From: an uncultured Candidatus Saccharibacteria bacterium
GTDB taxonomy: Bacteria; Patescibacteriota; Minisyncoccia; Phycocordibacterales; WO2-35-19
NCBI GenBank assembly: GCA_964589445.1
Contig: CAZPQX010000002.1
Span: 352 to 64,351 of the forward strand
DNA: 64,000 bases
Reading direction: 5' to 3'
Both the position numbers and the translations under genes were made by a program. Shown in pieces: positions 23,785 to 60,900 of the stretch (positions are counted from its first letter, which is position 1; every line of letters begins with the position of its first letter). Below the pieces are notes generated by a model that was not told the origin of the DNA, did not search any database, and worked only from the letters and a program-made list of their open reading frames with translations.

Positions 23785-26718
23785 ATGAATAATTATGATC
23801 ACAAAGAAATAGATAAGAAGTGGCCCCACTCCGCTGAAGCTTCGCGGGGCAAGCAAGAGTATAATCATCGAGAGATTGAGTCTAAATGGCAAGAAGTTTG
23901 GAATAAAAATAAACTTTATAAAACAGAGGAAGATCCAAGTAAACCCAAGTCTTTTGTTTTGGACATGTTCCCTTATCCTTCTGGAGAGGGCTTGCATGTC
24001 GGTCACCCCAAGGGCTACATCGCTACTGACATTTATTCCCGTATGAAAAAAATGCAAGGGCACAATGTCTTGCACCCAATGGGATGGGATGCTTTTGGAT
24101 TGCCTGCGGAGAACTTTGCTATAAAACATAAAATTCACCCAAGAGTTGCAGTAGAAAAAAATATTCAAAGATTTAAAGAGCAGCTTTCAAAAATTGGTTT
24201 TAACTATGATTGGGGCAGGGAAATAAATACTACAGATCCAGAATACTATAAATGGACACAGTGGATATTTTTGAAGATGCTCGAAAAAGGTTTGGCTTAT
24301 GAATCTTATGAACCGATAAACTGGTGCCCTTCTTGCCAGACTGGTCTTGCAAATGAAGATTTGGAGTCAGATGGTACTTGTGAACGCTGTGGCTCTGTCG
24401 TAGAAAAGCGCCCAATGCGACAGTGGGTTTTGAAAATAACAGAATACGCAGACAGGATGCTTGAAGATTTGAAACTTTTGGATTGGCCTGAATATATAAA
24501 GGAGGCTCAGAGGAATTGGATAGGTAGGAGTGAGGGGATGCTCTTCAGTGCTCCAGTAAAAGATACTGACTTAAAAATTCAAACATTTTCAGCGCATTTC
24601 GAAGGTTTTGCTGCAGATACTTTTGTTGTAATCGCACCAGATCATCCGTTTTTGCCACAGTTGGTAAAAGGGACTGAAAAAGAAAAAGAAGTTTTGGAAT
24701 TTGCTCAAAAGCTCGTGGAAAAAAGATTGGCTCAAGGGTTTGCTGCCGAAAAAGAGTCAGAAGGGATTTTCACTGGTCGTTATATTGTTGATCCGGTGGG
24801 TAATGGAGATTTGCCAATTTGGGTGGCGAGTTATGCGCTCGCTGATTATGGTACGGGTATAGTGAAATGTTCTGCTCATGATGAGCGAGATTTCGCCTTT
24901 GCGAAAAAATACAATGTTCCCTTGAAAGAAGTTTTGATCCCAAGGATGATTGACTATACCAACCCTCATGTTGAAGGTAAAAAGGTAGTTTTTCGAAAAG
25001 CTGTTATTGTACTTCTCAAAAATCCAAAAACTGGTGAAATATTGACTTTGAAATGGAAGAAGCAGCCCTGGGTCACTTTTGTCATGGGAGGAATTGAAGA
25101 AGGGGAAACTCCAGAACAGGCGGCAGAAAGGGAAATAAAAGAAGAAACTGGTTATCAAAATATAAAAAATATAAAAATTTTGGGTGGTCCGACCCAGGCA
25201 GAATTTTTTGCAGCTCACAAGGATGAAAATCGCATCACCAACTCGTGGCTTGCGGTCGCTGAGCTTGCTGATGAAACTCAAGAAAGTTTGTCCGATGAAG
25301 AAGCTGCGATACATGAACTTGAATGGGTTGATCCAGAAAAAATAGATCCTAAAAAAATCCAGCATAGCGAGGCTGCACTTATCTTGGATAGGATGAAAAA
25401 TGGAGTGAAGGCTTGGACTGATATGAAAAACAGTGTACTTTTGGCACCAGAGCAGTTTAAAGGAAAGATTGCGGGAGAAGTACGACAAGAAATAATCGAA
25501 TATTTAGAAAAAAATAAATTAGCTGAAAAAAAGACCACATATAAAATAAAAGATTGGGTGTTTAGTAGGCAGAGATATTGGGGAGAGCCAATACCTGTGA
25601 TCCATTGCGAAGAGTGTGGGGTCGTAGGCGTGCCCGAAAAAGATTTGCCGGTGAGACTTCCTGATGTTGAAAATTATCAGCCGACAGGTACTGGTGAGTC
25701 TCCGCTTGCCAACATTGAGAATTGGGTAAATACAACTTGTCCTAAGTGTGGTGGTGCTGCAAGGCGCGAGACAAACACGATGCCTCAGTGGGCAGGGTCT
25801 TCTTGGTATTATTTGCGCTTCATGGATCCAAAAAATAGTGAGAAACTTGTCGACCCCAAAAAAGAAAAATACTGGGCGCCTGTTGATGTGTATGTCGGGG
25901 GGGACCATGCGGTGAGACATCTTATATATGCTAGGTTTTGGCATAAGTTTTTGTTTGACATTGGCTCTGTGAGTACCGAAGAGCCTTTTGCTAGATTGGA
26001 ATTCTTGGGATTTATTTTGGCAAAAGACGGAAGGAAGATGAGTAAGAGATGGGGGAATGTGATAAATCCTGACGATATAGTTGATTTGTGGGGAGCAGAT
26101 ACCTTGAGGCTCTATGAGATGTTTATGGGCCCATTTGAAAACACGATTGCTTGGAAAGATGAAAGTCTTATAGGTGTCAGGAGATTTTTAGAAAGGTCTT
26201 GGAAATTTGCGCATGGCAATTTTGTAGATCAAGATTCTCAAGAAAAAAATCAAAAAATAGAGTCATTACTACACAAAACAATCAAAAAAGTAACTGAAGA
26301 CATAGAAGGTTTCAAATTCAATACCGCCATTTCTACGATGATGATCTTGCTCAATGAATTTGAGGCGAATAAAGATTTGGTTTCTAAAGAATATGTCGAG
26401 GTATTTTTGAAACTTTTGGCCCCTTTTGCTCCTCATATGGCCGAAGAGATATGGTCTGGTTTTGGAAACCAAAAATCAATACATTTGGAAGAATGGCCAA
26501 AGTTTGACGAGTTAAAAACCAAGGAGACAGAGGTAAAAATTATGGTGCAGGTAAACGGCAGAGTGAGGGCAAATTTCGTTGCAAATGCTGGTATTTCTGA
26601 AGAAGAAGCCAAAAAACAGGCCCTCGCCATGCCAGAAGTTCAGAAGTGGATTCAAGGTCTTAGCATAGAGAAGACAATCTTTGTTGTGGATAAGCTTCTG
26701 AATATCGTTGTAAAATAG
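23785..26718 (+). CDS. leuS: leucyl-tRNA synthetase with an embedded Nudix hydrolase domain
   Basis: HVGHPKGY (HIGH), KMSKRWGN (KMSKS) and a LeuRS-specific anticodon-binding C-terminus. A GGIEEGETPEQAAEREIKEETG Nudix box lies within an insertion of about 150 aa (about nt 24940-25420). Confidence 0.9.
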   Translation: MNNYDHKEIDKKWPHSAEASRGKQEYNHREIESKWQEVWNKNKLYKTEEDPSKPKSFVLDMFPYPSGEGLHVGHPKGYIATDIYSRMKKMQGHNVLHPMGWDAFGLPAENFAIKHKIHPRVAVEKNIQRFKEQLSKIGFNYDWGREINTTDPEYYKWTQWIFLKMLEKGLAYESYEPINWCPSCQTGLANEDLESDGTCERCGSVVEKRPMRQWVLKITEYADRMLEDLKLLDWPEYIKEAQRNWIGRSEGMLFSAPVKDTDLKIQTFSAHFEGFAADTFVVIAPDHPFLPQLVKGTEKEKEVLEFAQKLVEKRLAQGFAAEKESEGIFTGRYIVDPVGNGDLPIWVASYALADYGTGIVKCSAHDERDFAFAKKYNVPLKEVLIPRMIDYTNPHVEGKKVVFRKAVIVLLKNPKTGEILTLKWKKQPWVTFVMGGIEEGETPEQAAEREIKEETGYQNIKNIKILGGPTQAEFFAAHKDENRITNSWLAVAELADETQESLSDEEAAIHELEWVDPEKIDPKKIQHSEAALILDRMKNGVKAWTDMKNSVLLAPEQFKGKIAGEVRQEIIEYLEKNKLAEKKTTYKIKDWVFSRQRYWGEPIPVIHCEECGVVGVPEKDLPVRLPDVENYQPTGTGESPLANIENWVNTTCPKCGGAARRETNTMPQWAGSSWYYLRFMDPKNSEKLVDPKKEKYWAPVDVYVGGDHAVRHLIYARFWHKFLFDIGSVSTEEPFARLEFLGFILAKDGRKMSKRWGNVINPDDIVDLWGADTLRLYEMFMGPFENTIAWKDESLIGVRRFLERSWKFAHGNFVDQDSQEKNQKIESLLHKTIKKVTEDIEGFKFNTAISTMMILLNEFEANKDLVSKEYVEVFLKLLAPFAPHMAEEIWSGFGNQKSIHLEEWPKFDELKTKETEVKIMVQVNGRVRANFVANAGISEEEAKKQALAMPEVQKWIQGLSIEKTIFVVDKLLNIVVK

Positions 26719-26799: not shown

Positions 26800-27855
26800 A
26801 TGAAAAATAATCCTTCAAAAAACAAACAAATACCACTTTCGTTCAACCCTAAACAGGTAGTGAAGAAGCTTTTGAATTCACTTCCTTCTAGAGCTCAGGA
26901 CATCATAGTGGGTAGGTTTGGTCTTTCTGGGGGAGGTGAAGAGATGACTCTTGAGTCTATCGGTAAGAAATATGGTATCACAAGAGAGAGAGTCAGGCAG
27001 ATAGAAAATTATGCAATCAATCATATAAGAAAGTCTGATACTTACGAAAAAGAAAAAGTTTCTTTTGAGGAATTGTTTAAGGTTATAAAAGGTATGGGCG
27101 GCATAGTTTCTGAAGAGGACTTACTAGAAAGCCTAGGTAAAGATGCTACTACAAGAAAAAATGTTCACTTCCTTTTGGTGGTGGGTGACAGCTTCAGTAA
27201 AGTAAAAGAAGATGTCGAATTCAAACACAGGTGGCACATAGACAAAGAGCTTGCAGACAGGATACACGAAGCTATCCAAAAACTTTATTCAGGTCTCAAA
27301 GATGATGAGATCGTACCAGAGTCTGAAATAGTGGCTTCATTCTTAGAGCATCTTAAGGGTGTATCAGACGAATACAAAAATGATGAGATACTCACAAGAT
27401 GGCTTTCAATTTCTAAAAATATTTCCAAAAATCCTCTTGGTGAATGGGGTAGATCAAAATCTTCAAATATAAAGACAAAGGGTGTTAGAGACTACGCATA
27501 CTTGATACTCAGAAAGCATGGTTCACCTATACACTTTAGAGAAGTGGCTAAACTCATAGGAGAAATCTTCAATAAGAAGGCTCATGTCGCTACTACTCAC
27601 AACGAACTTATAAAAGACCCAAGATTTGTACTTGTAGGCAGAGGTCTTTATGCTCTTAAGGAGTGGGGCTACTCTACTGGTGTGGTAAAAGATGTCATAA
27701 AAGATATTTTGAAAAGAGAAGGTCCTCTATCAAAGGGCGATATTCTAGAAAGGGTTTTGAAGGAAAGATATGTCAAAGAAAATACAGTTTTGGTAAATCT
27801 ACAGAATCCAAAATTCTTCAAGAAAAACAAGCAAGGTCTCTACGTTGTCGCTTAA
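26800..27855 (+). CDS. sigma-70 region 4 domain-containing DNA-binding protein
   Basis: LESIGKKYGITRERVRQIENYAINHIRK matches the region-4 HTH. Remainder unknown. Confidence 0.5.
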   Translation: MKNNPSKNKQIPLSFNPKQVVKKLLNSLPSRAQDIIVGRFGLSGGGEEMTLESIGKKYGITRERVRQIENYAINHIRKSDTYEKEKVSFEELFKVIKGMGGIVSEEDLLESLGKDATTRKNVHFLLVVGDSFSKVKEDVEFKHRWHIDKELADRIHEAIQKLYSGLKDDEIVPESEIVASFLEHLKGVSDEYKNDEILTRWLSISKNISKNPLGEWGRSKSSNIKTKGVRDYAYLILRKHGSPIHFREVAKLIGEIFNKKAHVATTHNELIKDPRFVLVGRGLYALKEWGYSTGVVKDVIKDILKREGPLSKGDILERVLKERYVKENTVLVNLQNPKFFKKNKQGLYVVA

Positions 27856-28061: not shown

Positions 28062-29294
28062 ATGTCTGGTTTTTTTGATAGCGAACTGTGGGATTTATTT
28101 TTAGTTGCTCTAAAGTACGCATATCGTTTTATGCCACTTTGGCTTCCTCTTATACTTTTGTATTTGCTTTTTAATGCTTGGATTTATTACAAAAGGACAA
28201 AATACTTGAGCTCTCTCGGGTATAAACTTCTCGAAATAAAACTACCAAGAGAAATACTCAAATCTCCTGCTGCTATGGAAATAGTGCTAGGTACTTTTTC
28301 TCAGGGCGGAGGAGAGAGTACTTGGATAGATAGGATCTGGAATGGTAAGACGAGGGATTGGTTTTCTCTTGAGATAGTCTCAAGAGAGGGCGAAGTGCAT
28401 TTTTATATTTGGACAAGACCGAAGTACAAAAAGGTTATAGAAACACAAATATATTCTCAGTATCCAGGAGTCGAGATTTACGAAGTGCCTGACTACACAC
28501 TTCCTTTTTATTATGACAAAGAAAAAATAGAAATTTGGGGGGCTGATTTTGTGCTTACCAAAGCCGACCCATACCCAATAAAAACCTATGTTGACTACGG
28601 ACTAGATAAAGACCCCAAGGAGGAATTTAAAATTGATCCGATGACTCCGCTTGTAGAATTTATGGGTTCTATCACCCAAGGTCAGCATATATGGGTGCAA
28701 ATAATGATCAGGGCGCATAAGAAGAGGAGAATCTGGGATCTTTTTGATGAAAAAGAAGATGCTTGGGTAGAGGAAGCCAAAACAGAAAAAGAAAAGATAC
28801 TTGCTAAGTTGAAGTCTGATAAGGATGCTGGGTTTCCTAGGATACCTACTAAAATTGAAGGGGACACCATAGCAGCCCTCGAAAGAAGTGTCACCAAGCT
28901 TCCTTTTGATTGCGGTATAAGGGCCATTTATATAGCAGACAAAGATAAATTTAGTTCTTCAAACATAGGTGGTATCACTGGCGCTTGGAAGCAGTATGGC
29001 TCTGCAAACCTAAATGGCTTCAAACCAGCTGGTTGGATGACTATATTTGACTACCCTTGGCAAGAATGGGGAGGCAAAAAAGATGCACTTAAACCTATAT
29101 TGCTAGAAGAGTATAAGCTACGTCGTTACTTTCATTCTACAAATATGGGCGCTGATTTTTATAGCAAACCTTTTGTACTCAATGTTGAAGAGCTTGCCAC
29201 TATATTTCACTTCCCAGGCGCAGTACTCGCTACACCTACATTTACTAGACTTCCATCCAAGAAATCCAATGCACCTTCTAATCTTCCAATATGA
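28062..29294 (+). CDS. hypothetical membrane-anchored protein, translationally coupled to mltG
   Basis: N-terminal TM. 410 aa. Stop overlaps the mltG start (ATGA). Confidence 0.5.
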   Translation: MSGFFDSELWDLFLVALKYAYRFMPLWLPLILLYLLFNAWIYYKRTKYLSSLGYKLLEIKLPREILKSPAAMEIVLGTFSQGGGESTWIDRIWNGKTRDWFSLEIVSREGEVHFYIWTRPKYKKVIETQIYSQYPGVEIYEVPDYTLPFYYDKEKIEIWGADFVLTKADPYPIKTYVDYGLDKDPKEEFKIDPMTPLVEFMGSITQGQHIWVQIMIRAHKKRRIWDLFDEKEDAWVEEAKTEKEKILAKLKSDKDAGFPRIPTKIEGDTIAALERSVTKLPFDCGIRAIYIADKDKFSSSNIGGITGAWKQYGSANLNGFKPAGWMTIFDYPWQEWGGKKDALKPILLEEYKLRRYFHSTNMGADFYSKPFVLNVEELATIFHFPGAVLATPTFTRLPSKKSNAPSNLPI

Positions 29295-30409: not shown

Positions 30410-30422
30410 TGTCGGATGTAAA

Positions 30423-30541
30423 CCCAAAAAACCAAAAACACTACTCCTTCTGCGTTAGGTCATAAGCCTGCCCGCCATGCTTCGCAAGGCGATGCGGGCG
30501 GGGTTTTAGGCTCTTGAAGAAGTGTGTTTTTGGTTTTTTGG
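30423..30541. repeat. 19-bp perfect inverted repeat (cccaaaaaaccaaaaacac) flanking an 81-nt spacer with an inner GC hairpin
   Basis: Arms 30423-30441 and 30523-30541. Inner cctgcccgcc...gcgggcgggg hairpin. Confidence 0.6.
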
Positions 30542-30552
30542 GAAATAAAATA

Positions 30553-30591
30553 TAAAAAGTTGCGCTCCGCTCGTTCTTCACGAGCGGAGCG
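30553..30591 (-). terminator. intrinsic terminator for the minus-strand 130-aa gene
   Basis: gcgctccgctcg-ttcttca-cgagcggagcg 11-bp stem with a T-run on the minus strand. Confidence 0.7.
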
Positions 30592-30600
30592 GTTTCAGTG

Positions 30601-30993
30601 TTAGGCCGGGATCTGGGCTGGGGCGAATAATTGCTCGAATATCTCATCTGACGGGCATGGTGACATGCCGTTCAGGGAGAGGAATGGGGTGCTCCCTGCA
30701 AATACAGGTCGCAGCCAGTAAAACACGATGCTCCTGGGGAGCACACTTGCTCCATCTTCTAAAGTCGTCACCAGCCTTACTTGCCACATTTCAGCCGGGG
30801 GTTTTGGTGACACCCGACTAGTTCCGGTAGCCTCTATTCGGGCCACTATATTCTTTTTTGAGATGTGGTTGCCATAGTAACTTTGCACAGACATTAGCAG
30901 ATTTGTACCTGCTCCGTGCAACGCATCATTTGCGATATACCAGGTTCCCAAGGGTTCCCCAGGGAAAGTGATCCCTGATTCGATTCTGAACAT
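30601..30993 (-). CDS. GC-rich hypothetical protein (130 aa)
   Basis: AGGAGG SD 6 nt upstream of ATG. About 52% GC. Lone minus-strand gene. Confidence 0.5.
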   Translation of the reverse strand: MFRIESGITFPGEPLGTWYIANDALHGAGTNLLMSVQSYYGNHISKKNIVARIEATGTSRVSPKPPAEMWQVRLVTTLEDGASVLPRSIVFYWLRPVFAGSTPFLSLNGMSPCPSDEIFEQLFAPAQIPA

Positions 30994-31030
30994 GTTGCCA
31001 ACCTCCTGTTTTTAGATTAAAATAGAAATA

Positions 31031-32284
31031 ATGAAAAGTCAAGGAAAAAAAGTCATAGATCCTGAGCGAAGTCGAAGGGTTTTTGTAGGCCTTTCGGGCG
31101 GGGTGGACTCGGCTGTTTCTGCTGCACTCCTCAAGAGCCAGGGTTTTGATGTGACTGGAGTTTTTATCAAGGCTTGGTCACCTCCTGGCTTCGTCTGTAC
31201 ATGGAAAGAAGACAGAAGGAGCGCCATGAGAGCGGCGGCTGTTTTGGATATCCCATTTCTCACTCTTGATTTGGAAAAGGAATACAAAAAGGATGTTGTG
31301 GACTATATGATACGAGAATATAGAGAAGGCAAGACTCCCAACCCTGACGTAATGTGCAATAAGGAAATAAAGTTTGGGCACTTTTTGAAATTTGCTCTCG
31401 AAAATGGCGCTGACTACGTGGCGACGGGGCATTACGCTCGAGTCCATGCAAGTCAGGAGTTGCGAGGAGAAGGTTCTCTCAAAAAGTCCTCGGGTTCCTT
31501 CCCTTCGGTCGGCCAGACTTTTATCGAGAACTTTTCTGTCCTGTTGCTTGAGGGAAAAGATAAGAACAAAGACCAATCATATTTTCTCTGGACACTAACA
31601 CAAGATCAGCTAAAGCACACACTTTTCCCGATTGGGCACTTGGAAAAGTCAGAAGTAAGGAAGCTTGCTCACAAATTTGGTTTGCCTCAAGAAACACGCA
31701 AAGACAGTCAAGGACTCTGCTTCCTCGGCAAGATAGACATGAAAGAATTCTTGAAGGAATATCTCGATGTTAAAAAAGGGGATGTATTGAATGAAAACGG
31801 TGAGGTGATAGGTGAGCATGATGGTGCAGAGCTTTTCACTTTAGGAGAAAGGCACGGGTTTAGTATTTTTAAACAAACAGGTGAGCCAATGTATGTGGTG
31901 AGCAAGGATGTTGAAAAAAATACTATTACGATTGCAGTGAAATATAATTTTGATGAGAAAAATGAGACGGCAGAGCAGGAAAGCTCCTCCTCAAAAAGTC
32001 CTCGGTCCCTCGCCCAGGGCTCAGCCAGACTTTTTTCAGAGGACTTTCCTGCTCTGCCTAGGCGAATTTATTCACAAAACTGGATTTCGGGCGAGGAACC
32101 GAAGGAAGAAATCGAGTGCAGGCTTCGTTATAGGCAGACAAAAATAAAGTGCAGGGTAGAGGGGGATAATTTATTTTTGACAGATGGGGAAATAGTGGCT
32201 CCTGGTCAATCAGTTGTTTTTTATGGGCCTGCCTCTTCGGCGGAAATAAGTGAAATTTGCCTTGGTGGTGCTATAATAGCCTAG
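31031..32284 (+). CDS. mnmA: tRNA-specific 2-thiouridylase MnmA (with two in-frame palindromic insertions)
   Basis: VGLSGGVDSAVSA PP-loop, KDQSYFL, C-terminal PGQSVVFY...CLGGAII. Two insert regions relative to canonical MnmA. Confidence 0.85.
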   Translation: MKSQGKKVIDPERSRRVFVGLSGGVDSAVSAALLKSQGFDVTGVFIKAWSPPGFVCTWKEDRRSAMRAAAVLDIPFLTLDLEKEYKKDVVDYMIREYREGKTPNPDVMCNKEIKFGHFLKFALENGADYVATGHYARVHASQELRGEGSLKKSSGSFPSVGQTFIENFSVLLLEGKDKNKDQSYFLWTLTQDQLKHTLFPIGHLEKSEVRKLAHKFGLPQETRKDSQGLCFLGKIDMKEFLKEYLDVKKGDVLNENGEVIGEHDGAELFTLGERHGFSIFKQTGEPMYVVSKDVEKNTITIAVKYNFDEKNETAEQESSSSKSPRSLAQGSARLFSEDFPALPRRIYSQNWISGEEPKEEIECRLRYRQTKIKCRVEGDNLFLTDGEIVAPGQSVVFYGPASSAEISEICLGGAIIA

Positions 32285-32304: not shown

Positions 32305-33141
32305 ATGAAAGAAAAAATATTAATTACAAAAGCGACAGGCGAAAGGGAAAATTTTGATTCAAATAAACTCAGGAGTTCTCTTCTTAGATCGAGGGCTGAG
32401 CCAAATATCGTAGATGATATTATAGGTAGGGTAGAGCTTGAGCTTAGAGACGGCATGACTACTGCCGAAATATACAGGAATGCTTTTGCCTTACTTAAAG
32501 AAAAACACGTAAAAGCATCTGTTAGGTATTCACTTCGTAACGCGGTGATGGACATGGGGCCGACTGGTTTCCCATTTGAGAAACTTATAGCAGAGATTTG
32601 GCGAGCAAAAGGTTTTGAAAGTACTACTGACTATATAGCAAAGGGTAAATGTGTCGACCATGAGATAGATGTGGCTGCTTGGAATAATGAAAAGCTCATC
32701 ATGATAGAAGCTAAATTTCATAATGAGTTTGGTATAAAGTCTGATCTCAAAACTGTTTTGTATGTAAACTCGAGATGGGCTGATCTGGAAGGCGAAGTTT
32801 TTGACGGGATTTTGGGAGGCAGGAAACTTAGTGAAGGTTGGCTTATCACAAATACAAAATTTACTGAGCAGGCTATAAAATATGCGCAGTGTAGAAAAAT
32901 GAATTTGATTGGTTGGAATTACCCAGAGACAGGCAATTTGCAGGATTTGATAGAAGATAGCGGCATGCACCCGATCACTTCTTTGAAAAGTATTGGTCCG
33001 AGAGAAGAGAGGCTCCTCATGGAGGCGGGTATCGTGCTTTGCAACCAAGCAAAAGAAAATCAAGATGTGGTAAGACAGGCAGGTATCACGGGTGAAAAAT
33101 TTGTAGAAATGATGCAAGAAATAGATTTGATACAGCAATGA
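32305..33141 (+). CDS. ATP-cone domain fused to Mrr-like restriction-endonuclease fold with C-terminal HhH
   Basis: N-terminal ATP-cone (KILITKATGERENFDSNKL). FEKLIAEIW...DHEIDVAAW...IEAK PD-(D/E)xK. LKSIGPREERLLMEAGI HhH. Confidence 0.6.
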   Translation: MKEKILITKATGERENFDSNKLRSSLLRSRAEPNIVDDIIGRVELELRDGMTTAEIYRNAFALLKEKHVKASVRYSLRNAVMDMGPTGFPFEKLIAEIWRAKGFESTTDYIAKGKCVDHEIDVAAWNNEKLIMIEAKFHNEFGIKSDLKTVLYVNSRWADLEGEVFDGILGGRKLSEGWLITNTKFTEQAIKYAQCRKMNLIGWNYPETGNLQDLIEDSGMHPITSLKSIGPREERLLMEAGIVLCNQAKENQDVVRQAGITGEKFVEMMQEIDLIQQ

Positions 33142-33866
33142 GTTTTTATAAAAAAAAGTTATATGAGCCTGATTCTAAGGAATATTTCAAAGTAAGTCGA
33201 TCAAAAATCGATTTATTTGTTGAGTGTCCGAGGTGTTTTTATTTGGATAGAAGGGTGGGGGTGTCGAGGCCCCAAGGCTTTCCTTTCAACTTAAACAGTG
33301 CCGTCGACCTACTTCTTAAAAAAGAATTTGATATTCATAGAAAGCAAAAAACTCCTCATCCACTCATGGATAGCTACGGTATAGAAGCCGTGCCTTTTGA
33401 AGATAAGAGGATGGATGAATGGAGGGAAAACTTTGTCGGGGTCCAGGCTTTTCATAAACCAACAAACTTTTTGGTTTTTGGTGCCGTGGATGATTTGTGG
33501 GTAAACAAGCAGGGAGAAATTATGGTTGTCGACTACAAGGCGACCAGCAAAGATGGGGAAGTGGGGCTCGACGCTGAGTGGCAGGGAGGGTACAAGAGGC
33601 AGATGGAGGTGTACCAGTGGCTCCTCCGGGGCAATGATTTGAAAGTTTCTGACACTGGGTATTTTGTTTATGCAAACGGCAAGAGAGATAGGGAGGCTTT
33701 CGAGGGTAAGCTCGAGTTTGATATAAAGATAATTTCTTATACTGGTAGTACTGAATGGGTAGAAGAAACTTTGGAAAAAATGAAAAAGTGTTTGGATGGT
33801 GACCTGCCAAAATGCTCACCAAATTGTGAGTATTGTAAGTATGTTTCCGAGGCTGCAAAGTCATAA
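33138..33866 (+). CDS. PD-(D/E)XK nuclease, Cas4/RecB-like with four-Cys (Fe-S) cluster
   Basis: N-terminal CPRC. VVDYKAT (D..K), QMEVYQW (QxxxY), C-terminal CLDGDLPKCSPNCEYC. Start overlaps the upstream gene. Confidence 0.65.
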   Translation: MSFYKKKLYEPDSKEYFKVSRSKIDLFVECPRCFYLDRRVGVSRPQGFPFNLNSAVDLLLKKEFDIHRKQKTPHPLMDSYGIEAVPFEDKRMDEWRENFVGVQAFHKPTNFLVFGAVDDLWVNKQGEIMVVDYKATSKDGEVGLDAEWQGGYKRQMEVYQWLLRGNDLKVSDTGYFVYANGKRDREAFEGKLEFDIKIISYTGSTEWVEETLEKMKKCLDGDLPKCSPNCEYCKYVSEAAKS

Positions 33867-33883
33867 AAAACCAGAAAAGAAAA

Positions 33884-33960
33884 AACCTGAAGTAAAATTT
33901 TGATCTCCGTGGGAACCCTTTAGGGAGGAGGAGTCAGAATTTTACTTCAGGTTTTTTTTG
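33884..33960 (+). terminator. long-armed hairpin terminator
   Basis: 16-bp arms aacctgaagtaaaatt / aattttacttcaggtt, about 37-nt spacer, T8. Confidence 0.6.
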
Positions 33961-34232
33961 GAAATTTGGATAAAAAAAGGCGGACCAACTGCGTCCGCTC
34001 TCATGTCTTGTTAGGCGTGCTTTTTGGGACGGACCCTCTTCTTTCTCTCCTCTTCCTCTTTGTTGTCTTGCGCTGTTTCTCGCGCAAGGAGTTCTGTAAG
34101 GGGAAAAGAGTTGAAGGGTCTCTGGTGGGGAGCACGCCTACCGTATACGACTTGGCTTTTGTACAGCCTATCCAACCCTTTAAGAGTGTGCATGTCTACT
34201 CCTACCAAAATGCTATAATTTTTGAAACTAAA

Positions 34233-34493
34233 ATGCAAAGGAAAACTTTTAAACAAAAAGTACTGGAGGTAGTGAGTAAAATTCCAAAAGGAAAAATCAT
34301 GACTTACAAAGAAGTCGCCAAGAAGGCAGGCAGCCCCAATGCGAGTCGTGCTGTAGGTAGTGTTTTGAAGACCAATTTTGACCCTAGCATCCCATGCCAC
34401 AGGGTCATAAGGAGTGATGGTGTCACGGGCGAGTACAATAGGGGGCGAGAAAATAAAATCAAACTATTAAAAGCAGAAGGGGCGCTACTCTAA
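34233..34493 (+). CDS. ogt: methylated-DNA-protein-cysteine methyltransferase, stand-alone catalytic/DNA-binding domain
   Basis: IPCHRVI active-site motif. TATAAT at 34214-34219 just upstream. The longer ORF upstream has a non-protein-like N-terminus. Confidence 0.7.
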   Translation: MQRKTFKQKVLEVVSKIPKGKIMTYKEVAKKAGSPNASRAVGSVLKTNFDPSIPCHRVIRSDGVTGEYNRGRENKIKLLKAEGALL

Positions 34494-34641
34494 GTGTGCG
34501 TCCCTGTCACGAATTCGAATATTACTCCAAAAATACTCAAAACAATAATTATAATCAGCATCAAGGATGCGAAACTGACCTGCGGTTCCTTGAGATTTTT
34601 TTCATGTTGCACCTCTTTTTCTTTTATAACATAATTTCCAC

Positions 34642-35247
34642 ATGACTAATACTACAGAAGATAGGAAAGAGCTCATGAAGCAAATAAGGGACGAGGTGGT
34701 GGCTCTCAAAAATTCTCCGCTATACAAATTTCGTATTGAAAATAAAAACTTGCCGGTGATTGGCGAGGGTAGCCACTCGGCCAAAATCATGTTTATAGGT
34801 GAAGCCCCAGGGAGGAACGAAGCCAAAACGGGGCGGCCTTTTTGCGGTAGAGCAGGCGAAATATTCAACAAACTTTTAGAAAGTGTCGGTATTAAAAGAG
34901 AAGATGTGTATGTGACAAATATTGTTAAGGATAGGCCGCCACAAAATAGGGATCCACTTCCAGAAGAAATAAAAATATATGGGCCATTTCTCGATAGGCA
35001 GATAGAGATAGTGAGGCCGGAAGTTATCGCCACGCTTGGCCGCTATGCGATGGGCTATGTCATGCCCAAATTTGATCTTGGTTCGGAACTTGAACCGATA
35101 GGCAAAGCTCACGGCAAAACATACGAAGCGGAGGCAAGCTATGGGAAAATAAAAATCATACCTCTCTATCACCCAGCCGTGGCTGTCTACAACTCCCACA
35201 CTCTCGATATTCTAAAAAAAGATTTTGAAGTTTTGAAAGGGATTTGA
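34642..35247 (+). CDS. udg: uracil-DNA glycosylase, family 4
   Basis: GEGSHSAKIMFIGEAPGRNE motif A. Cys residues. HPA motif near the C-terminus. Confidence 0.8.
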   Translation: MTNTTEDRKELMKQIRDEVVALKNSPLYKFRIENKNLPVIGEGSHSAKIMFIGEAPGRNEAKTGRPFCGRAGEIFNKLLESVGIKREDVYVTNIVKDRPPQNRDPLPEEIKIYGPFLDRQIEIVRPEVIATLGRYAMGYVMPKFDLGSELEPIGKAHGKTYEAEASYGKIKIIPLYHPAVAVYNSHTLDILKKDFEVLKGI

Positions 35248-40060: not shown

Positions 40061-41491
40061 TTGTGGGTGAAGAGCTGTATAATTAAAAGTATGGTAAAAG
40101 TTCAGTTTAGTGATGTACTTCCTCCTGACAAGAGGAGCATCCGCAACATATCAATCTCAAGACCAAACAAGAGAAGGAATATTGAAGTTGTAGAGACAGC
40201 AGGCTCAATGGATAAAGTAAATATCTCTCAACAAAGAGATGTTTACCCTAAGGCTCCTGTAGCTTCAATTCCTTCTGTAACAAGAGAGGTGCCTGAGACA
40301 AAAAGCAACCCTGCTTACGAATTTTATTATCCAAAGAAAGATAATCTAGGTTCGGGGGGAGGCGATGGCAGAAGAAAGACCTTTATAATAGGAGGTTTGG
40401 TCGTAGCTGCTTGTCTCATTTTTGTATTTTCCATGATGACAGTATTTTCTTCGGCTACTGTTTTGCTTAATCCCAAAAATCAAGATCTACAGGTGTCTCT
40501 CGATTTTACTGCTAGCAAAGACCCTATAGCTACGAGTACAGTGAGGTACGAGGTATTGAAGCTCACCAAGTCTGACAGTACTTCTGTTGAAGCTACAGGC
40601 GAAGAGTTTGTCGAAGAGAAGGCAAGTGGCAAAATAGTTATATACAATAATTTTTCTTCTGAACCTCAGAGACTCATAATCAGGACAAGGTTTGAGAGTG
40701 CACAAGGGCTTATATATCGTATACCTGAGTCTATAGTAGTGCCGGGTAAAACATCGCAAGGCCCGGGTAGTATAGAGGTGACGGTTTTCGCAGATGAAGC
40801 AGGAGAGAAATATAATATAGAAAAGACAGATTTTACAGTGCCAGGATTTAAGAGTGATGCAGAAAGGTACAAGGGTTTTTATGCTAGATCTGCTACAGAT
40901 ATGAGTGGAGGATTTTCGGGCAAAAGGAAAACCGTAGCCGCGGCTGACAAGAGTACAGCACTCGGCCTTTTGGATGCCAATCTTACTGAGGCGGTTTCAA
41001 AAGAATTTGATTCAAAAGTTCCAGAAGGGCTGGTATTGCTAAAAGATTCAATAGTTTTTGATTATAGGGAAACAGCTCAAAATGAGGATTCCTCAAGGGT
41101 GACTATAGGAAGAGAGGTGGATGCATATGCCATACTTCTAAACAAAGACGATCTTTCTAAAATGATATCGGCTAAGTATCTGGAGGGTAACCCGGAGTGG
41201 CAAAATATGCCTTCAATGATAAAAGATTTCTCTGGTCTAAGGGTGTCTAAAAAACCAAACGCAGTACCAAGTAATGGTAATATAAATTTAGGCATAGAAG
41301 GTGGTGCTACTATATTTGCTCATGTTGATGTAGATGCTATAGTAGCTAAGCTCTCTGGTATAGAGAAGAAAAACATAAATTCTCTTATCGAGAGCATGCC
41401 AAATGTATCAAGTATGAAGGTCACACTAAGGCCAATTTGGAAGCAGTCTTTCCCAGAAAACCCTTCAAAAATAGAGGTAAAACTGGAATGA
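40061..41491 (+). CDS. hypothetical membrane-anchored protein (start uncertain)
   Basis: One TM (IIGGLVVAACLIFVFSMMTVF) then a large extracytoplasmic domain. No motif recognised. Confidence 0.45.
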   Translation: MWVKSCIIKSMVKVQFSDVLPPDKRSIRNISISRPNKRRNIEVVETAGSMDKVNISQQRDVYPKAPVASIPSVTREVPETKSNPAYEFYYPKKDNLGSGGGDGRRKTFIIGGLVVAACLIFVFSMMTVFSSATVLLNPKNQDLQVSLDFTASKDPIATSTVRYEVLKLTKSDSTSVEATGEEFVEEKASGKIVIYNNFSSEPQRLIIRTRFESAQGLIYRIPESIVVPGKTSQGPGSIEVTVFADEAGEKYNIEKTDFTVPGFKSDAERYKGFYARSATDMSGGFSGKRKTVAAADKSTALGLLDANLTEAVSKEFDSKVPEGLVLLKDSIVFDYRETAQNEDSSRVTIGREVDAYAILLNKDDLSKMISAKYLEGNPEWQNMPSMIKDFSGLRVSKKPNAVPSNGNINLGIEGGATIFAHVDVDAIVAKLSGIEKKNINSLIESMPNVSSMKVTLRPIWKQSFPENPSKIEVKLE

Positions 41492-54954: not shown

Positions 54955-57900
54955 GTGCAAGGATCTCTGAATTTTGAAGGCAAAAAATATATATCAGCAA
55001 AAGATGCTGCTAAGCAATTTGGCTATACAAGTGACTACATTGGTCAGCTTTGTCGTGGTGGTAAAATAAAATCAAAGCTTGTGGGTAGGGTGTGGTATGT
55101 ACTCGAATCAGAAATATCTTCTTACAAAAAAGTTCATCTCGCTCCAGGTAGACCATCTAAAAAAAATCTTTCAAACAAAAAAACACTACACTCATCTTCA
55201 TTTAAGAAAACAAAAAAAATTGCAGATTCAAAAGAAGATGTTTTGTTAGAAAATAAAAAAGAAATTTATTTAAATTTAGAAACACCTAAAGAATCACCAA
55301 AATACAACGTATTTCCTGAAATATCTCGGGTTGCCGAGATTGATTCAAAAAAAGTCTTATATATAGAAGACAATTCAGAGCTATTCCCAACACTCAAAAG
55401 AAACATAGACCTCGAATACATAAAAAGACATGCTTTTGATAACCTAGAAAAGGCAAAAAGCGGCAAATATAAAGCGACCAAATTTGATAAAACAGTCGCT
55501 TCTTCGCTTGTGGCAGTAGTCGTACTTTCTTTGGGCACTTTTGGTCTTTTTGAAGGGTCAAATTTCATAAACAGACTAAAGACAGAGTCTCGAGGTTCTG
55601 CTTTTGAAGAAGTTTCGCTGCTCTATTCTCCTCTCGTTAGAGATATAAACAGATCTGTGGCTCAAATTTCAGAAAAAACAGGAGTTTCTAGTTCACAGTT
55701 GGCTCTCTCTGTCGCATCAGATAGCAATACAAAATTAGTTTTTGATTTTGTAAGGAATATTGGAGAAAAAGTATTTGGCAGGTTCTTTGGCAAAGAGACT
55801 GTTTTGGTGGATTCTGGCGAATCAAACACGGTAAAAACAATAGTTATAAAAGAGACTTCTTATCCTTCTGCTGCTCCCGCACAAAATACAGTATCTACCC
55901 AAGCAAAGACAGTCTTCTTACCTTCTTTTGATAAGGAATACATAAACTCACTCATCGAAGAAAAATTTGTGGCTCTCAAAAACAATTTCCTCACTAGCAC
56001 CATTGCTCCAAATGTAAACAGGTACTATGTGTCAAGACAAAATGATGAAATAGTCGGCAATATAGGAAGTGTGGTTGCCAATCTCGAAGACAGGATAGAC
56101 GATGCAATCTCAAATATATCACTCACTGACCTCAATCTTTCTACTCTTTCAGTATCAGGTACCTCTATATTCTCTGGAAATGTGTCTCTAAATGGCTCGA
56201 CCACAGCAAGCACACTCTCTGCCACGGATTGGCTTTCTGTAGGTACTACCACAAATCATGCCACTCTCACAGTGGATGGTGCTTTTTACTTGGCGCAAGT
56301 TACCCCTCCGGGAGACACATCAAACAGGCTTTACAATGACGGAGGTGATTTGTATTGGAATGGCTCTATACTCGCTGGCTCCGGAGTGGGCAATTGGTCT
56401 ACAGATGGCACTAGTGTATGGAGAGCTTCAGGAAAAGTGGGTATAGGTACATCTACTCCTTCAACAGCTTTAGTTGTTCAAGGAAATGGTCTGACTTATG
56501 TAAATACAAATACAAATGCAGGAAGTTCTACAATATCTTTTGGAGGAGGCAACAATAATCGCCCTGTCTTTAATATGGGCCCCTTGGGTACTCCAGATGA
56601 ATTTAAAATATGGAACCTTGGATATTACCAGATGGGCGCTACAAATTCACAAGGATTAGCTCTTATGACCAACAATACCAATCGCTTGTATATAACAAGT
56701 GCTGGAAATGTAGGTATTGGAACAACAAGTCCAGGTAGTTTACTACAAATAGAAGGGAACCCATCTGGAGCAATACTTACTCTAAGGAGGGCTTCAACTG
56801 CAGGGGATTTGCCAATTTACTTTACAAAATCAAATGGTGGGCTCCAGGGAGCCATAGTTTCTTATAATGCAGGAGATATTTCTCTACATACAACTGATGG
56901 GGCAGAAAAAGTCAGATTGTTAAATAATGGAAATTTGGGTATTGGCACCACATCACCATTTGCAAAACTTTCTGTCGAGTCGACTGCGGGGGCTGCACAG
57001 TTTGCTATTGGCTCATCAACCGCCACTTCTTTTATTGTCGACAAAAATGGAAATGTTGGGATTGGTATAGTGACCCCTACACAAGCATTGGATGTAGTGG
57101 GAAGCGTACAAGCTTCAGGTAGTTTCTATTCTGGAAATGGTATAGGCATATCTCCAACTCAAACTACCATGTATAGTGGCTACAATTTTGGTTGGAATGC
57201 AAACGCTACTCGCGCAGGAAGCCCTGATGTAAATCTTTCAAGGGGTGGTGTATCAAAATTGTATTTAGGCAACGGCACATTAGGTGACTTTACTGGTACT
57301 TTGATTGCGGGAAACATAGGAGTCGCTACTACTTCTCCCTCTGCAAAACTTTCTATAAAGGCGGATGGTACTGGTACTGGCAGAGCATTTACTATTTCTG
57401 ACTCTGCTGATGCCGAGAAACTCACTGTACTTGATAATGGAAGTTTGCTCTTAGGTACTGGCTCACAGCTAGCAAGCTCGGGCAAGATAAGATTGACGCT
57501 TGGTGATGGTATCAGGTGGAGGAGAAATGATTTGGTAAATGATATGGGCATTACATACGATGCATCAGGTTCTTTTTGGTACGGTACAGCATCTTCTTCA
57601 TCTGCTCCTTTCCTTATAAATTCAAGCGGAAATATAGGGGTGGGTATATCTAGTCCTACAAGCCTTTTGACCTTGTATGGTGCGAGCCAGACCATCACAC
57701 TTCAAAATCCAACTACAGGTAGTACTGTAAGTGATGGCTACTACTTGGGGCTAGGTGCCGGCACCACAGATATGTATTTGTGGAATAGAGAGAGTGGTGC
57801 TGTCTATTTTGGTCAAAACAATGGTACTGTTATGACTTTAAATAATGGGAATGTCGGTATTGGTACTACGACTCCAGTGACCAAACTTACAGTTTATGGT

Positions 57901-60900
57901 ACTTCAGCTGATGCTTCTGCTTTGCTTGATAACGGCATATTTACAGTAAGAGGAAGCAACGGAGCTTATCTCCAAATTGGATCACAGACTGGCGAGCCTT
58001 ACGGTCTATATTTGCAGGGTAAAGATAGGACAAACAATGGTACTACATACCCTATCTTATTAAATCCAGTTGGAGGAAATGTGGGTGTTGGTACCACTAC
58101 TCCTTGGGGTAAGCTTTCGATCACAAATACGGGTAGCGGCCCAAGTTTTATCGTCGAAGACAGCACATCTCCTGATGCTTCTCCTTTTGTAATAGATGCG
58201 AGTGGGAATGTGGGGGTGGGGACGGTTGTTGCAGATAACAAGCTTCATATTGTTGATACACTGGCTAGCAATTTGCGCTACGGACTTAAATTAAGCAATT
58301 CGGCAGACGGAGTAGGTGCTGCAACTGGAATTTTATTTGAAGTTCAAGGTGGTGCAGCTGGAAGAGGAAAAGGTGGTCTTATATATCAAAATGATACTTC
58401 TTTAGGTTGGAATAGAGGAGATTTTATGTTTCTACAGAATTCAACAGCTGACGCCACAAACCCTACTGCTTCTAATGCAGTACTTACTATAAAAAATAAT
58501 GGTAATGTCGGTATTGGTTCGACCTCACCATTTGCAAAACTTTCTGTTGAATCGACTGCGGGAGCATCACAGTTTGTGGTCGGGTCATCGACTGCAACGC
58601 AATTCATTGTCGACAAGAATGGGAATGTGGGAGTGGGGACTGCGAATCCAACTTCCTTGTTACAAATATACGGTCAGGGCGTTGACATTTTGCAAGTTGG
58701 TAATGGTGTAGATACAAATACAAGTTTGAATGTACAAAATAGAGCTTTGTTTGGTTATAACCAAACAAGAGCGGCTGCTACTATACAAGGCATATCAGGT
58801 AGGGGTATAGATTTTAATGTTAATAACAATACATTTGGTTCGGGTCAGGCTATGGTAATCACAAGTGCTGGTAACGTCGGAGTCGGTACCACATCTCCTT
58901 TGGGCTTGCTCTCAGTAAACGCAAATGGCCTTGCGAGCGGCGCACCTCAGTTTGTCGTCGGCTCAAGCACGGCGACAAACCTTATAGTGGCTAATGATGG
59001 AAATGTGGGCGTAGGTATGACAAGTCCTTCATACAAGCTGGATGTGAATGGAGACATAAGATACGGTGCAAACGGTACTTTGAGGATAAATGGTGCCGGA
59101 AACTTTAAATTAGATAGCGATGAACTTTTCTTTGGTGGAGGCTCTCTTGGGACGATAAAAACAAACTGGGGTGGTGGAGGCCTAAGTTTGATAGCTGGAG
59201 GCAACAATCAGACAAGTGGCGATATCTCTTTGATAACAAATACAGCTTCTGGTGATGTGACAAGACTTATAATAAAAAGTGATGGAAATGTCGGCATCGG
59301 CACCACATCACCATACGCAAAGCTCTCTGTAGTAGGAGATGCAGCAATCACTGGCAATGTGAGAGTGGCTGGGCTCACTGCTACAGGCACAGTCACTTTC
59401 TCCGGTATCACTGGCTCTGACCAGTGTCTCCAAGTAGACGCAAACGGAGTAGTCGCTGGTACAGGAAGTGCTTGCGGCTCTAGTAGTGGTGGGTCAGCTG
59501 GCGGCACATGGGCGACTACCACATCACAAGTTGCGGGTAGGTTTGTAAACTATTCACTCAACTCTACTGACCTGGTAGCGATAGGCAGCAACTCGACCAC
59601 CACAGCAGAATTTTGGTTCGACCCAAACACTTCGACTTCATATCTTTCTGGAAATGTGGGTATCGGGGTTACATCTCCAGGAAATAAATTACATATAACA
59701 GGTGGAGGTATTTCTATAGGTAACAATGCGGCTCTAACAGACAGAGGTTTGATAAGTGTACATGATTCTTCAGATGCAAGAATAAATATTACTAAGGCAG
59801 GTGTGGATGGTTATAGATTGGAAACAAATGGAACTGCTGGTTCTTCTTATTTCACTATTGGAAGGGATAATGGAAGCTCTGATACTGGTAGTACTAATGC
59901 ATTTTTGAATATAACTCAGGCAGGCAATGTGGGCGTTGGCTCTACCACTCCAATGGATAAATTAACTGTTGTGGGAGGGGACATAAGTCTTTCAAGAAAT
60001 CAATACATTAGATTTAGATCTGAATCCTCTTCTATACAATCAGCAGCTATAGGTGGCACTTCTAGCAACGATCTTGCTTTTTACACAAATGGCCTAGCTG
60101 AAGGTATGAGACTTACTTCTTCTGGATATTTGGGTATTGCCTCTACTTCTCCTTGGGGGCTCCTATCCGTTAACCCAAATGGACTTTCAAGCGGCGCACC
60201 ACAATTCGTCGTCGGCTCAAGCACAGCTACCAACTTCATTATTGCGAATAATGGAAATGTGGGTGTGGGTATCACAAACCCAACTGCAAAATTAGATGTG
60301 AACGGTTCAATCTATTTGAGAACCGGGAGTTTTTTCTCAGATACTTATAGTGGTTATTCTGGAGGTGCTGTTACTCACAATATTCCATCAAGTTCATATT
60401 TGAGGTTTGTTATGGGTTCTCCAACTTCCTCTTTCCAAATACAAGATTCTTCTGCTGTGCCTCTATTAAAAATGGAAGCAAACGGAAGATTGGGGCTTGG
60501 AAGCAGCACCCCTTGGGCACAACTTTCAGTCCACCGAAATACTTCTGACACATCATACTCTCCACTCTTCGCTATCGCTTCTTCGACTGCTAGCGGCACG
60601 ACGACAAACTTCATTGTGGCAAATAATGGGAATGTCGGCATCGGGACTACTAATCTAACTGATAACTTAACCCTTAAACCATCATCAGCAGGTAAGGGAA
60701 TGGTGGTAAGGGAATCAGACGATGGTAATGAAGCAATTAGACTACTTGGTTTTTCTGGTGGTGGAAATCTAAGCCTCCAAACTGGAGGAGTAAATACAAT
60801 TAGCTTTGATGCCACAAGTGCCTCAGGGATATCATATTTTAATGCTGGGAATGTCGGCATCGGCACTACTACACCAAATAGGAAACTAACTGTATTTTCT

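Follow-up and report, generated by a model that had tools for sequence, protein, structure and literature searches.

An ATP-cone nuclease gene in a vertically inherited maintenance block of a Paceibacteria genome

The locus and its main features

The stretch of DNA analysed here, called the window, comprises 64,000 nucleotides of contig CAZPQX010000002.1 (assembly GCA_964589445.1) and shows, at positions 32305-35247 of the plus strand, four co-directional open reading frames (ORFs). They are named G1 to G4 and encode a nuclease with an N-terminal ATP-cone (G1), a Cas4-like nuclease (G2), an O6-alkylguanine-DNA alkyltransferase (G3, MGMT) and a family-4 uracil-DNA glycosylase (G4, UDG4) (Table 1). 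An earlier note, made from the letters of this DNA alone, had listed four consecutive genes with these identities; all four ORFs were found and the domain assignments hold. The locus lies in a Paceibacteria genome (Patescibacteria, or candidate phyla radiation, CPR), where it forms a chromosomal maintenance block that is inherited vertically; it is not a defence locus. G2, G3 and G4 belong to known families and are ordinary representatives of them. The G1 family has thousands of members and is already catalogued by domain; its ATP-cone ahead of a nuclease is an output undescribed in the literature searched. Judged from its sequence, G1 is quite possibly, if short of probably, an adenine-nucleotide-gated endonuclease that would act together with a lineage-specific exonuclease in the turnover or salvage of nucleic acids.

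Domain architecture and conserved residues of G1

G1 residues 88-202 match the Pfam family Mrr_cat (PF04471) with 37.2 bits (cut-off 21), and residues 94-272 match AF1548 of Archaeoglobus (PDB 1Y88), the only related solved structure, with E = 4e-29. Many other PD-(D/E)xK nucleases are also matched, including AspBHI, MspJI, Can2, NucS and Hjc. Both the hidden Markov model (HMM) and the structure match place G1 in the Mrr_cat/AF1548-like PD-(D/E)xK family. AF1548 of A. fulgidus is a structural-genomics protein predicted to be restriction-endonuclease-like, with D38, E51 and K53 as the predicted catalytic residues (PMC1821046). These residues align with D122, E135 and K137 of G1, and the spacing of the D...ExK motif is identical in both proteins. 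Unlike G1, AF1548 shows no ATP-cone, and its match begins at G1 residue 94.

The N-terminus of G1 shows the ATP-cone fold, a beta-hairpin and a four-helix bundle of about 85-90 residues. Residues 6-65 score 23.9 bits against the Pfam ATP-cone family (PF03477), slightly under its cut-off of 25.8 (E = 6.4e-5), and a precomputed PF03477 match is recorded for most G1 homologues. The cone is the only N-terminal domain: G1 starts directly at it, without a Cys4 Zn-ribbon and without a domain that reads modified DNA. The architecture described in the earlier note, an ATP-cone followed by an Mrr-type nuclease and a helix-hairpin-helix (HhH) domain, is borne out by the Mrr_cat score, by the 1Y88 match and by the presence of the cone fold.

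Residue conservation was followed in one set of 42 G1-family sequences and in another of 40 sequences from two phyla. In the ATP-cone, K9, G12 and K21 are invariant across Patescibacteria and Bacteroidota, and F17, R74 and Y75 are nearly so. In the nuclease core, E92, E120, D122, E135 and K137 are invariant in both phyla, at an overall identity of 33-40%, and the linker GPxG(F/Y)PFE is conserved in both. The invariant catalytic and cone residues argue for an active enzyme and for an ATP-cone under selection. A nuclease made responsive to (d)NTP pools by its ATP-cone, as proposed before, still seems the most sensible reading of G1, with its invariant K9, G12 and K21 and its invariant catalytic residues.

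The cone of G1 shares with those of NrdR and the ribonucleotide reductases the conserved signature K...G......K, and nucleotide-dependent oligomerisation or allostery is probably common to them. It differs from them in its output, a nuclease in place of a Zn-ribbon DNA binder or a reductase, in the placement of the cone N-terminal to the effector domain, and in the K-R pair, where alanine replaces the second basic residue. NrdR is the nearest protein in fold to the G1 cone, the motif at its N-terminus is similar to the one in E. coli NrdR (BLASTP E = 1e-4 against an NrdR sequence) and the HhH tail could bind DNA. G1 might on these grounds be a non-catalytic regulator, a repressor of target genes whose cone, HhH domain and inactive nuclease fold would make its binding to DNA depend on nucleotides. 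Such a role is extremely unlikely: the invariance of E92, D122, E135 and K137 in both phyla speaks for catalysis, G1 lacks the Zn-ribbon by which NrdR is defined, and 105 loci showed no association of the family with genes for ribonucleotide reductase.

The matches to G1 number at least 2,180 and nearly all of them are 275-290 aa long. Members from Zambryskibacteria and Paceibacteria share about 60% identity, and the family forms 418 clusters at 50% identity and E <= 1e-30. The Pontibacter copy of G1 has at least 7,522 matches of about 277-290 aa. Bacteroidota members belong to Pontibacter, Adhaeribacter, Sporocytophaga, Flavobacterium, Cyclobacterium and Saprospiraceae. The names given to members in the source databases are 'ATP cone domain-containing protein', 'restriction endonuclease', 'ATPase' and, in JGI, 'Holliday junction resolvase'. 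Fold matches to G1 in BFVD cover single domains only (TM <= 0.39).

Synteny, inheritance and the variable slot

Around G1, 95 related loci (L001-L095) were compared, and a single-protein scan of genome contigs with G1 gave 12 loci. The gene order c7, c5, YceG, MnmA, G1, variable slot and AlaRS is conserved throughout Paceibacteria, and the order YceG-MnmA-G1-...-AlaRS is syntenic in about 80 Paceibacteria loci. Of the 65 loci with enough flank, 51 have MnmA as the gene directly upstream of G1. When the percent identities of G1 and MnmA to the window copies are compared, they correlate with r = 0.89 and have means of 50.5% and 50.2%, respectively; this parallel divergence is characteristic of genes inherited together vertically.

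The slot after G1 contains, in varied combinations, genes encoding DUF7282, MgtC, the Cas4-like nuclease, PCMT, MGMT, an HD_3 5'-nucleotidase-like protein, UDG4, and PepF or M16 peptidases. Occupancy of the 3 kb downstream was counted in the 58 loci with at least 3 kb of flank after G1: 27 contain G2, 28 contain UDG4, 14 contain MGMT, and 19 contain none of the three. The gene directly following G1 was counted in 81 loci, mostly of Paceibacteria: it is G2 in 25, MgtC in 12-13, UDG4 in 10, DUF7282 in seven, and another gene in the rest. In 20 of the 25 adjacent pairs the gap between G1 and G2 ranges from -29 to +14 nt. MgtC is found after G1 in 12-17 CPR loci, and nearby in L080, L082 and L089. 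The HD_3 gene, encoding a YfbR-like 5'-deoxynucleotidase, is in the slot of several CPR loci. Rare large genes resembling defence genes (matches to mREase_IV, REase_I, MADS-like and PbeA models) also occur there. The co-occurrence of the first two genes, suggested earlier as a check, does recur, but G1 is found without G2 in other loci and throughout Bacteroidota. G1 and G2 thus pair repeatedly, but not obligatorily, within a backbone of housekeeping genes.

The block is not a defence locus

The cluster had been put forward as a possible compact defence or repair module, and its surroundings do not bear out the defence reading. The window shows housekeeping genes, which encode YchF, LeuRS, a sigma-like protein, YceG, MnmA, PepF, AlaRS, the ribosomal proteins S13, S11 and S4, RpoA, DnaK/DnaJ/GrpE and GatB. 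No tandem or CRISPR-like array was found in the 64 kb, and no cas gene other than the Cas4-like gene itself was found among 105 representatives of the neighbour families, in agreement with the earlier note. PADLOC gave no significant match for G1 (best E = 1.5e-3). On the whole window it gave no complete defence system, only isolated single-component similarities, including mad3, mad8 and MzaA. The mad3 match is taken to be PepF, because its E-values parallel those of Peptidase_M3. No G1 homologue was found by tblastn in 50,697 phage genomes, nor among IMG/VR contigs and PHROGs. Proximity to defence islands had been suggested as a further check: the neighbour families are housekeeping ones, and only a few singletons among the 105 representatives match defence models.

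As a defence effector, G1 would be a Type IV (Mrr-like) or abortive-infection nuclease fired by phage-perturbed (d)NTP pools, with G2 as its accessory nuclease. G1 does contain an Mrr_cat core, which places it in the same catalytic family as the Mrr/Type IV restriction endonucleases. It shows weak PADLOC similarities to Csx1, CARF_PDDEXK and ZorD (E about 1e-3), two of its homologues are on plasmids, and the occasional defence-like singletons are located downstream of it. This role is very unlikely all the same. Unlike Type IV enzymes, G1 carries no fused reader domain for modified DNA, and it was not seen with a methyltransferase partner. G1 itself matches no curated defence model and lies in no defence island. 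Its distribution is not patchy and horizontally mobile: G1 is syntenic and co-inherited with MnmA at an equal rate of divergence, and viral copies were not found in the collections searched. A family about 60% identical and uniform in length differs from fast-evolving, patchily distributed defence genes, and the plasmid copies sit in a metabolic operon, described below. An Mrr-type domain beside a Cas4-like gene is by itself no sign of defence; here the synteny and the phyletic pattern show a housekeeping locus.

Operons headed by G1 homologues outside the CPR

The plasmid copies of G1 in Pontibacter actiniarum and Criblamydia sequanensis (Chlamydiota) head an identical same-strand operon, which contains, in this order, genes encoding the ATP-cone nuclease, a hydrolase of the metallo-beta-lactamase (MBL) fold, a 'thymidine phosphorylase family protein' of about 500 aa and a ribose-phosphate pyrophosphokinase. 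Two contigs of chromosomal size (L100 and L102) show the same operon with three additional genes, encoding a 227-aa unknown protein, PPK2 and a P-type ATPase; the G1 homologues on them share about 60% identity with the copy in Pontibacter (Bacteroidota). The Criblamydia operon genes are 66-73% identical to those of L100, a Cyclobacterium-like contig, indicating that the operon has moved horizontally.

A beta-CASP hydrolase gene follows the G1 homologue in seven of 11 non-CPR loci (L080, L082, L096, L097, L100, L101 and L102). The operon beta-CASP protein is closest to the Thermus RNase TTHA0252 (E = 1.6e-70). The operon phosphorylase is closest to PDB 4GA5/4GA6 (E = 2.5e-102), whereas true thymidine phosphorylases are matched at about 1e-39. 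The entries 4GA4-4GA6 are those of the Thermococcus kodakarensis AMP phosphorylase. Genes for P-type cation ATPases, MgtC (with DUF4010), PPK2 and metal efflux recur near G1 homologues.

By its phosphorylase, the Bacteroidota operon resembles the archaeal/CPR nucleoside pathway (AMP phosphorylase, pentose bisphosphate). CPR bacteria are reported to carry such an archaeal-type nucleoside/AMP pathway (PMC5113843, PMC6389311). The operon differs from that pathway in that no ATP-cone nuclease was found described as a pathway member. The trio of MBL, phosphoribosyl pyrophosphate (PRPP) synthetase and thymidine phosphorylase family genes is induced by microoxia in Bradyrhizobium (PMC6515984). The low-oxygen lxa locus of Burkholderia was also considered as a potential home of the Bacteroidota-type operon and was dropped, as its paper does not mention these genes.

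Proposed function of G1

A gene of an exonuclease class follows G1 in two unrelated lineages, Cas4-like in Paceibacteria and TTHA0252-like beta-CASP in Bacteroidota. In the function put forward at the outset, G1 would be an active AF1548-type PD-(D/E)xK endonuclease whose N-terminal ATP-cone senses adenine nucleotides (ATP versus dATP or ADP). If G1 works as ribonucleotide reductase and NrdR do, a bound nucleotide would shift its oligomeric or conformational state and switch cleavage either on or off. The HhH tail would keep the enzyme on its nucleic acid, be it DNA or RNA, without sequence specificity. G1 would cut internally, and a coupled exonuclease, presumably the Cas4-like iron-sulphur (Fe-S) protein G2 in the window and the TTHA0252-like beta-CASP RNase in Bacteroidota, would degrade the fragments to mononucleotides. 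The purpose would be a regulated turnover of nucleic acids with recycling of their nucleotides, gated by nucleotide or energy status. The products would feed the AMP-phosphorylase-like and PRPP-synthetase-like enzymes in Bacteroidota and nucleotide salvage in CPR bacteria. For the latter, with their reported nucleoside/AMP pathway, such a purpose would be fitting. MGMT and UDG4 would be ordinary repair enzymes, separately transcribed, which share the variable slot.

Several points weigh against this function. The cone score of G1 itself is under the Pfam cut-off and the residue after K9, which is basic in E. coli NrdA (R10), is alanine throughout the G1 family; nucleotide binding by G1 is for these reasons only predicted. 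CPR genomes are compact and any gene after G1 is tightly packed, so close spacing by itself says little about functional coupling. Genes for an AMP phosphorylase, a beta-CASP protein or a PRPP synthetase were not found near G1 in the CPR loci or in the window. The Bacteroidota partner is an RNase homologue, whereas the HhH domain and the Cas4-like nuclease point to DNA, so that one substrate may not fit both clades. The published literature searched contains no experimental work on the G1 family, and its sole related item is the 2007 prediction for AF1548. Finally, the recurrent neighbours in Paceibacteria, UDG4 and MGMT, are DNA-repair genes, which fits a repair function equally well.

The main alternative is a dedicated module for DNA repair or recombination, in which G1 would act as an endonuclease specific for a structure or a lesion (for example as a resolvase, as a flap nuclease or at apurinic/apyrimidinic sites). 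G2 would resect ends, both would share pathways with UDG4 and MGMT, and the ATP-cone would limit cutting to cells with adequate dNTP or ATP for repair synthesis. HhH domains are typical of repair proteins. UDG4, the Cas4-like nuclease and MGMT all recur within 3 kb after G1, and the slot also houses PCMT, a protein-repair enzyme. The fold of G2 resembles those of the end-resection nucleases Dna2, AdnAB, RecE, Exo5 and MGME1, and some family members bear the JGI label of Holliday junction resolvase. These neighbours are optional, since a third of the loci counted (19/58) contain none of the three. They also belong to a single, wholly syntenic lineage and so amount to about one evolutionary observation. 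Furthermore, MGMT and UDG4 are in separate transcription units in the window, and the partners in Bacteroidota and Chlamydiota (RNase homologue, AMP-phosphorylase-like, PRPP-synthetase-like, PPK2 and cation ATPases) include no repair gene. A repair module is possible on this evidence but rather unlikely.

A wider extension of adenine-nucleotide gating is possible but rather unlikely: the G1 family would be a new allosteric nuclease class, the gatekeeper of a regulated catabolism of self or scavenged nucleic acids, and the first output of an ATP-cone outside ribonucleotide reduction and its repressor. Depletion of adenine nucleotides would lead G1 to cut, the lineage-specific exonuclease would follow, and the mononucleotides would enter salvage or the AMP-phosphorylase/pentose-bisphosphate route. 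If this were true, G1 would be a core, vertically inherited part of the scavenging lifestyle of salvage-dependent CPR bacteria, and a link to Mg2+/ATP homeostasis would follow from its recurrent neighbours, MgtC, P-type ATPases and PPK2. To our knowledge, the only role worked out for ATP-cones is the regulation of dNTP synthesis, in ribonucleotide reductases and NrdR. A nuclease under ATP-cone control would therefore be new enzymology in a very large and highly conserved family, and would give a regulated route from nucleic acids to nucleotides in organisms unable to make their own. The family lends itself to testing: culturable Bacteroidota contain homologues, and G1 is a small protein which is modelled at high confidence (pTM 0.89).

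The Cas4-like nuclease G2

G2 matches Pfam PDDEXK_1 with 43.5 bits and the Cas4 equivalog TIGR00372 with 30.4 bits, below the cut-off of 65. The RecB-type motifs are conserved (D119, D132-Y-K134 and Q155...Y159). Among G2 orthologues, C30 and C33 are present in 100%, C230 and C233 in 90%, and C218 in 72%. With the D, DxK and QxxxY motifs, cysteines conserved at both the N- and C-terminus and a Cas4-like fold, G2 resembles the Cas4/RecB-like iron-staple exonucleases (Cas4, the Dna2 nuclease domain, AddB/AdnAB and Exo5). The classic iron-staple layout has one N-terminal and three C-terminal cysteines. G2 differs from it, its layout being CxxC ... C-x11-C-x2-C. Of the earlier description, the Cas4/RecB-like nuclease and its 4-nt overlap with G1 stand, and the four-cysteine signature gives way to five conserved cysteines. 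Unlike CRISPR-associated Cas4, G2 is accompanied by no cas1, cas2 or CRISPR array and scores below the equivalog level, and it is of the 'solo Cas4' type.

The repair genes G3 and G4

G3 matches PF01035 (DNA_binding_1) with 95.9 bits and TIGR00589 with 76.9 bits (cut-off 46.4). It carries the active-site motif IPCHRV and lacks the N-terminal domain of full-length alkyltransferases, as expected of the minimal enzyme with a PCHRV motif that had been recognised before. The 175-aa ORF with a TTG start at 33966 is too long for G3; the true start is the ATG at 34233, and the resulting 86 aa match the orthologues.

G4 matches TIGR00758 (UDG family 4) with 187.1 bits (cut-off 125.3) and conserves the GEAPG and YHPA motifs, which confirms its previous assignment. 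Typical family-4 enzymes have four cysteines that ligate a [4Fe-4S] cluster. G4 has one cysteine, 33 of 39 orthologues have between none and two, and the alignment shows one Cys-rich column only; this scarcity points to a cluster-free UDG4 lineage in Paceibacteria. MGMT and UDG4 are stand-alone repair enzymes of the ordinary kind and belong to separate transcription units.

Transcription units and gene layout

G1 starts 20 nt past the MnmA stop codon, which makes co-transcription of the two genes probable, and the G2 start overlaps the G1 stop by 4 nt (ATGA, read from sequence). The inverted repeat just past G2 looks like a bidirectional intrinsic terminator that would close the MnmA-G1-G2 unit; with a loop of more than 8 nt, it escaped a simple terminator scan. 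A 367-nt spacer (33867-34233) separates G2 from MGMT, with the motif TGcTATAAT at 34211-34219, just upstream of the MGMT start, and a 148-nt gap precedes UDG4. With this hairpin and these gaps, the four genes are not one operon, and the single compact module previously proposed falls away. The genes appear to form at least two transcription units and probably three. The coordinates of the locus, of the G1 domains and of the operons headed by G1 homologues are given in Table 1.

Table 1. Features of the G1 locus in the window and G1-headed operons in related loci (positions in the latter are those of the respective locus)
Feature	Position	Strand	Remarks
MnmA (tRNA 2-thiouridylase)	31031-32284	+	Pfam tRNA_Me_trans, 241.8 bits; conserved upstream neighbour of G1
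G1, ATP-cone + AF1548/Mrr-type PD-(D/E)xK nuclease + HhH, 278 aa	32305-33141	+	
G1 ATP-cone domain	32305-32565	+	About residues 1-87; beta-hairpin and four helices
G1 nuclease core	32566-32925	+	About residues 88-207; catalytic E92, D122, E135-x-K137
G1 C-terminal helical HhH domain (AF1548-like_C, PF22357)	32926-33138	+	1Y88 match reaches residue 272; PF22357 recorded for homologues
G2, solo Cas4-family (RecB-like) exonuclease, Fe-S cysteines, 242 aa	33138-33866	+	
Long inverted repeat	33873-33960	.	Stem of about 29 bp, A-run and T-run at the flanks; read from sequence
G3, single-domain O6-alkylguanine-DNA alkyltransferase (PCHRV), 86 aa	34233-34493	+	
G4, family-4 uracil-DNA glycosylase	34642-35247	+	GEAPG and HPA motifs; without Fe-S cysteines
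G1-headed operon, L096	1972-6597		
G1-headed operon, L097	7995-12602		
G1-headed operon, L100	7001-14855		
G1-headed operon, L102	6001-12855		

Intergenic regions and other genes of the window

The spacer between G2 and MGMT shows a G+C-rich stretch after the hairpin and a terminator-like hairpin on the minus strand (33998-33980). The gap between YceG and MnmA (30410-31030) is also G+C-rich; it is 620 nt long and contains a strong 12-bp terminator hairpin on the minus strand (30591-30563). In related loci this gap is of similar size and is filled by unrelated small antisense ORFs. Under the E-value threshold used, Rfam gave only chance hairpin matches or nothing for the gaps 30410-31030 and 33867-34233, without a family match, and blastn of both against the related loci showed no nucleotide conservation. 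The YceG-MnmA gap may encode an unannotated non-coding RNA on the minus strand.

Two backbone proteins have no relatives in Pfam or PDB. The first (28062-29294, 410 aa) shows an N-terminal hydrophobic segment and has homologues near G1 in 37 loci; the second (40061-41491, 476 aa) has homologues in 10 related loci. The c7 protein (26800-27855), conserved at the start of the syntenic block, contains a Sigma70 region 4 and a HARE-HTH domain. LeuRS (23785-26718) shows a NUDIX domain (residues 403-529) inserted just past the editing domain. At the end of the window, one giant ORF of at least 3,015 aa on the plus strand (54955-64000) runs off the sequence and accounts for the apparent scarcity of ORFs at 53.5-64 kb.

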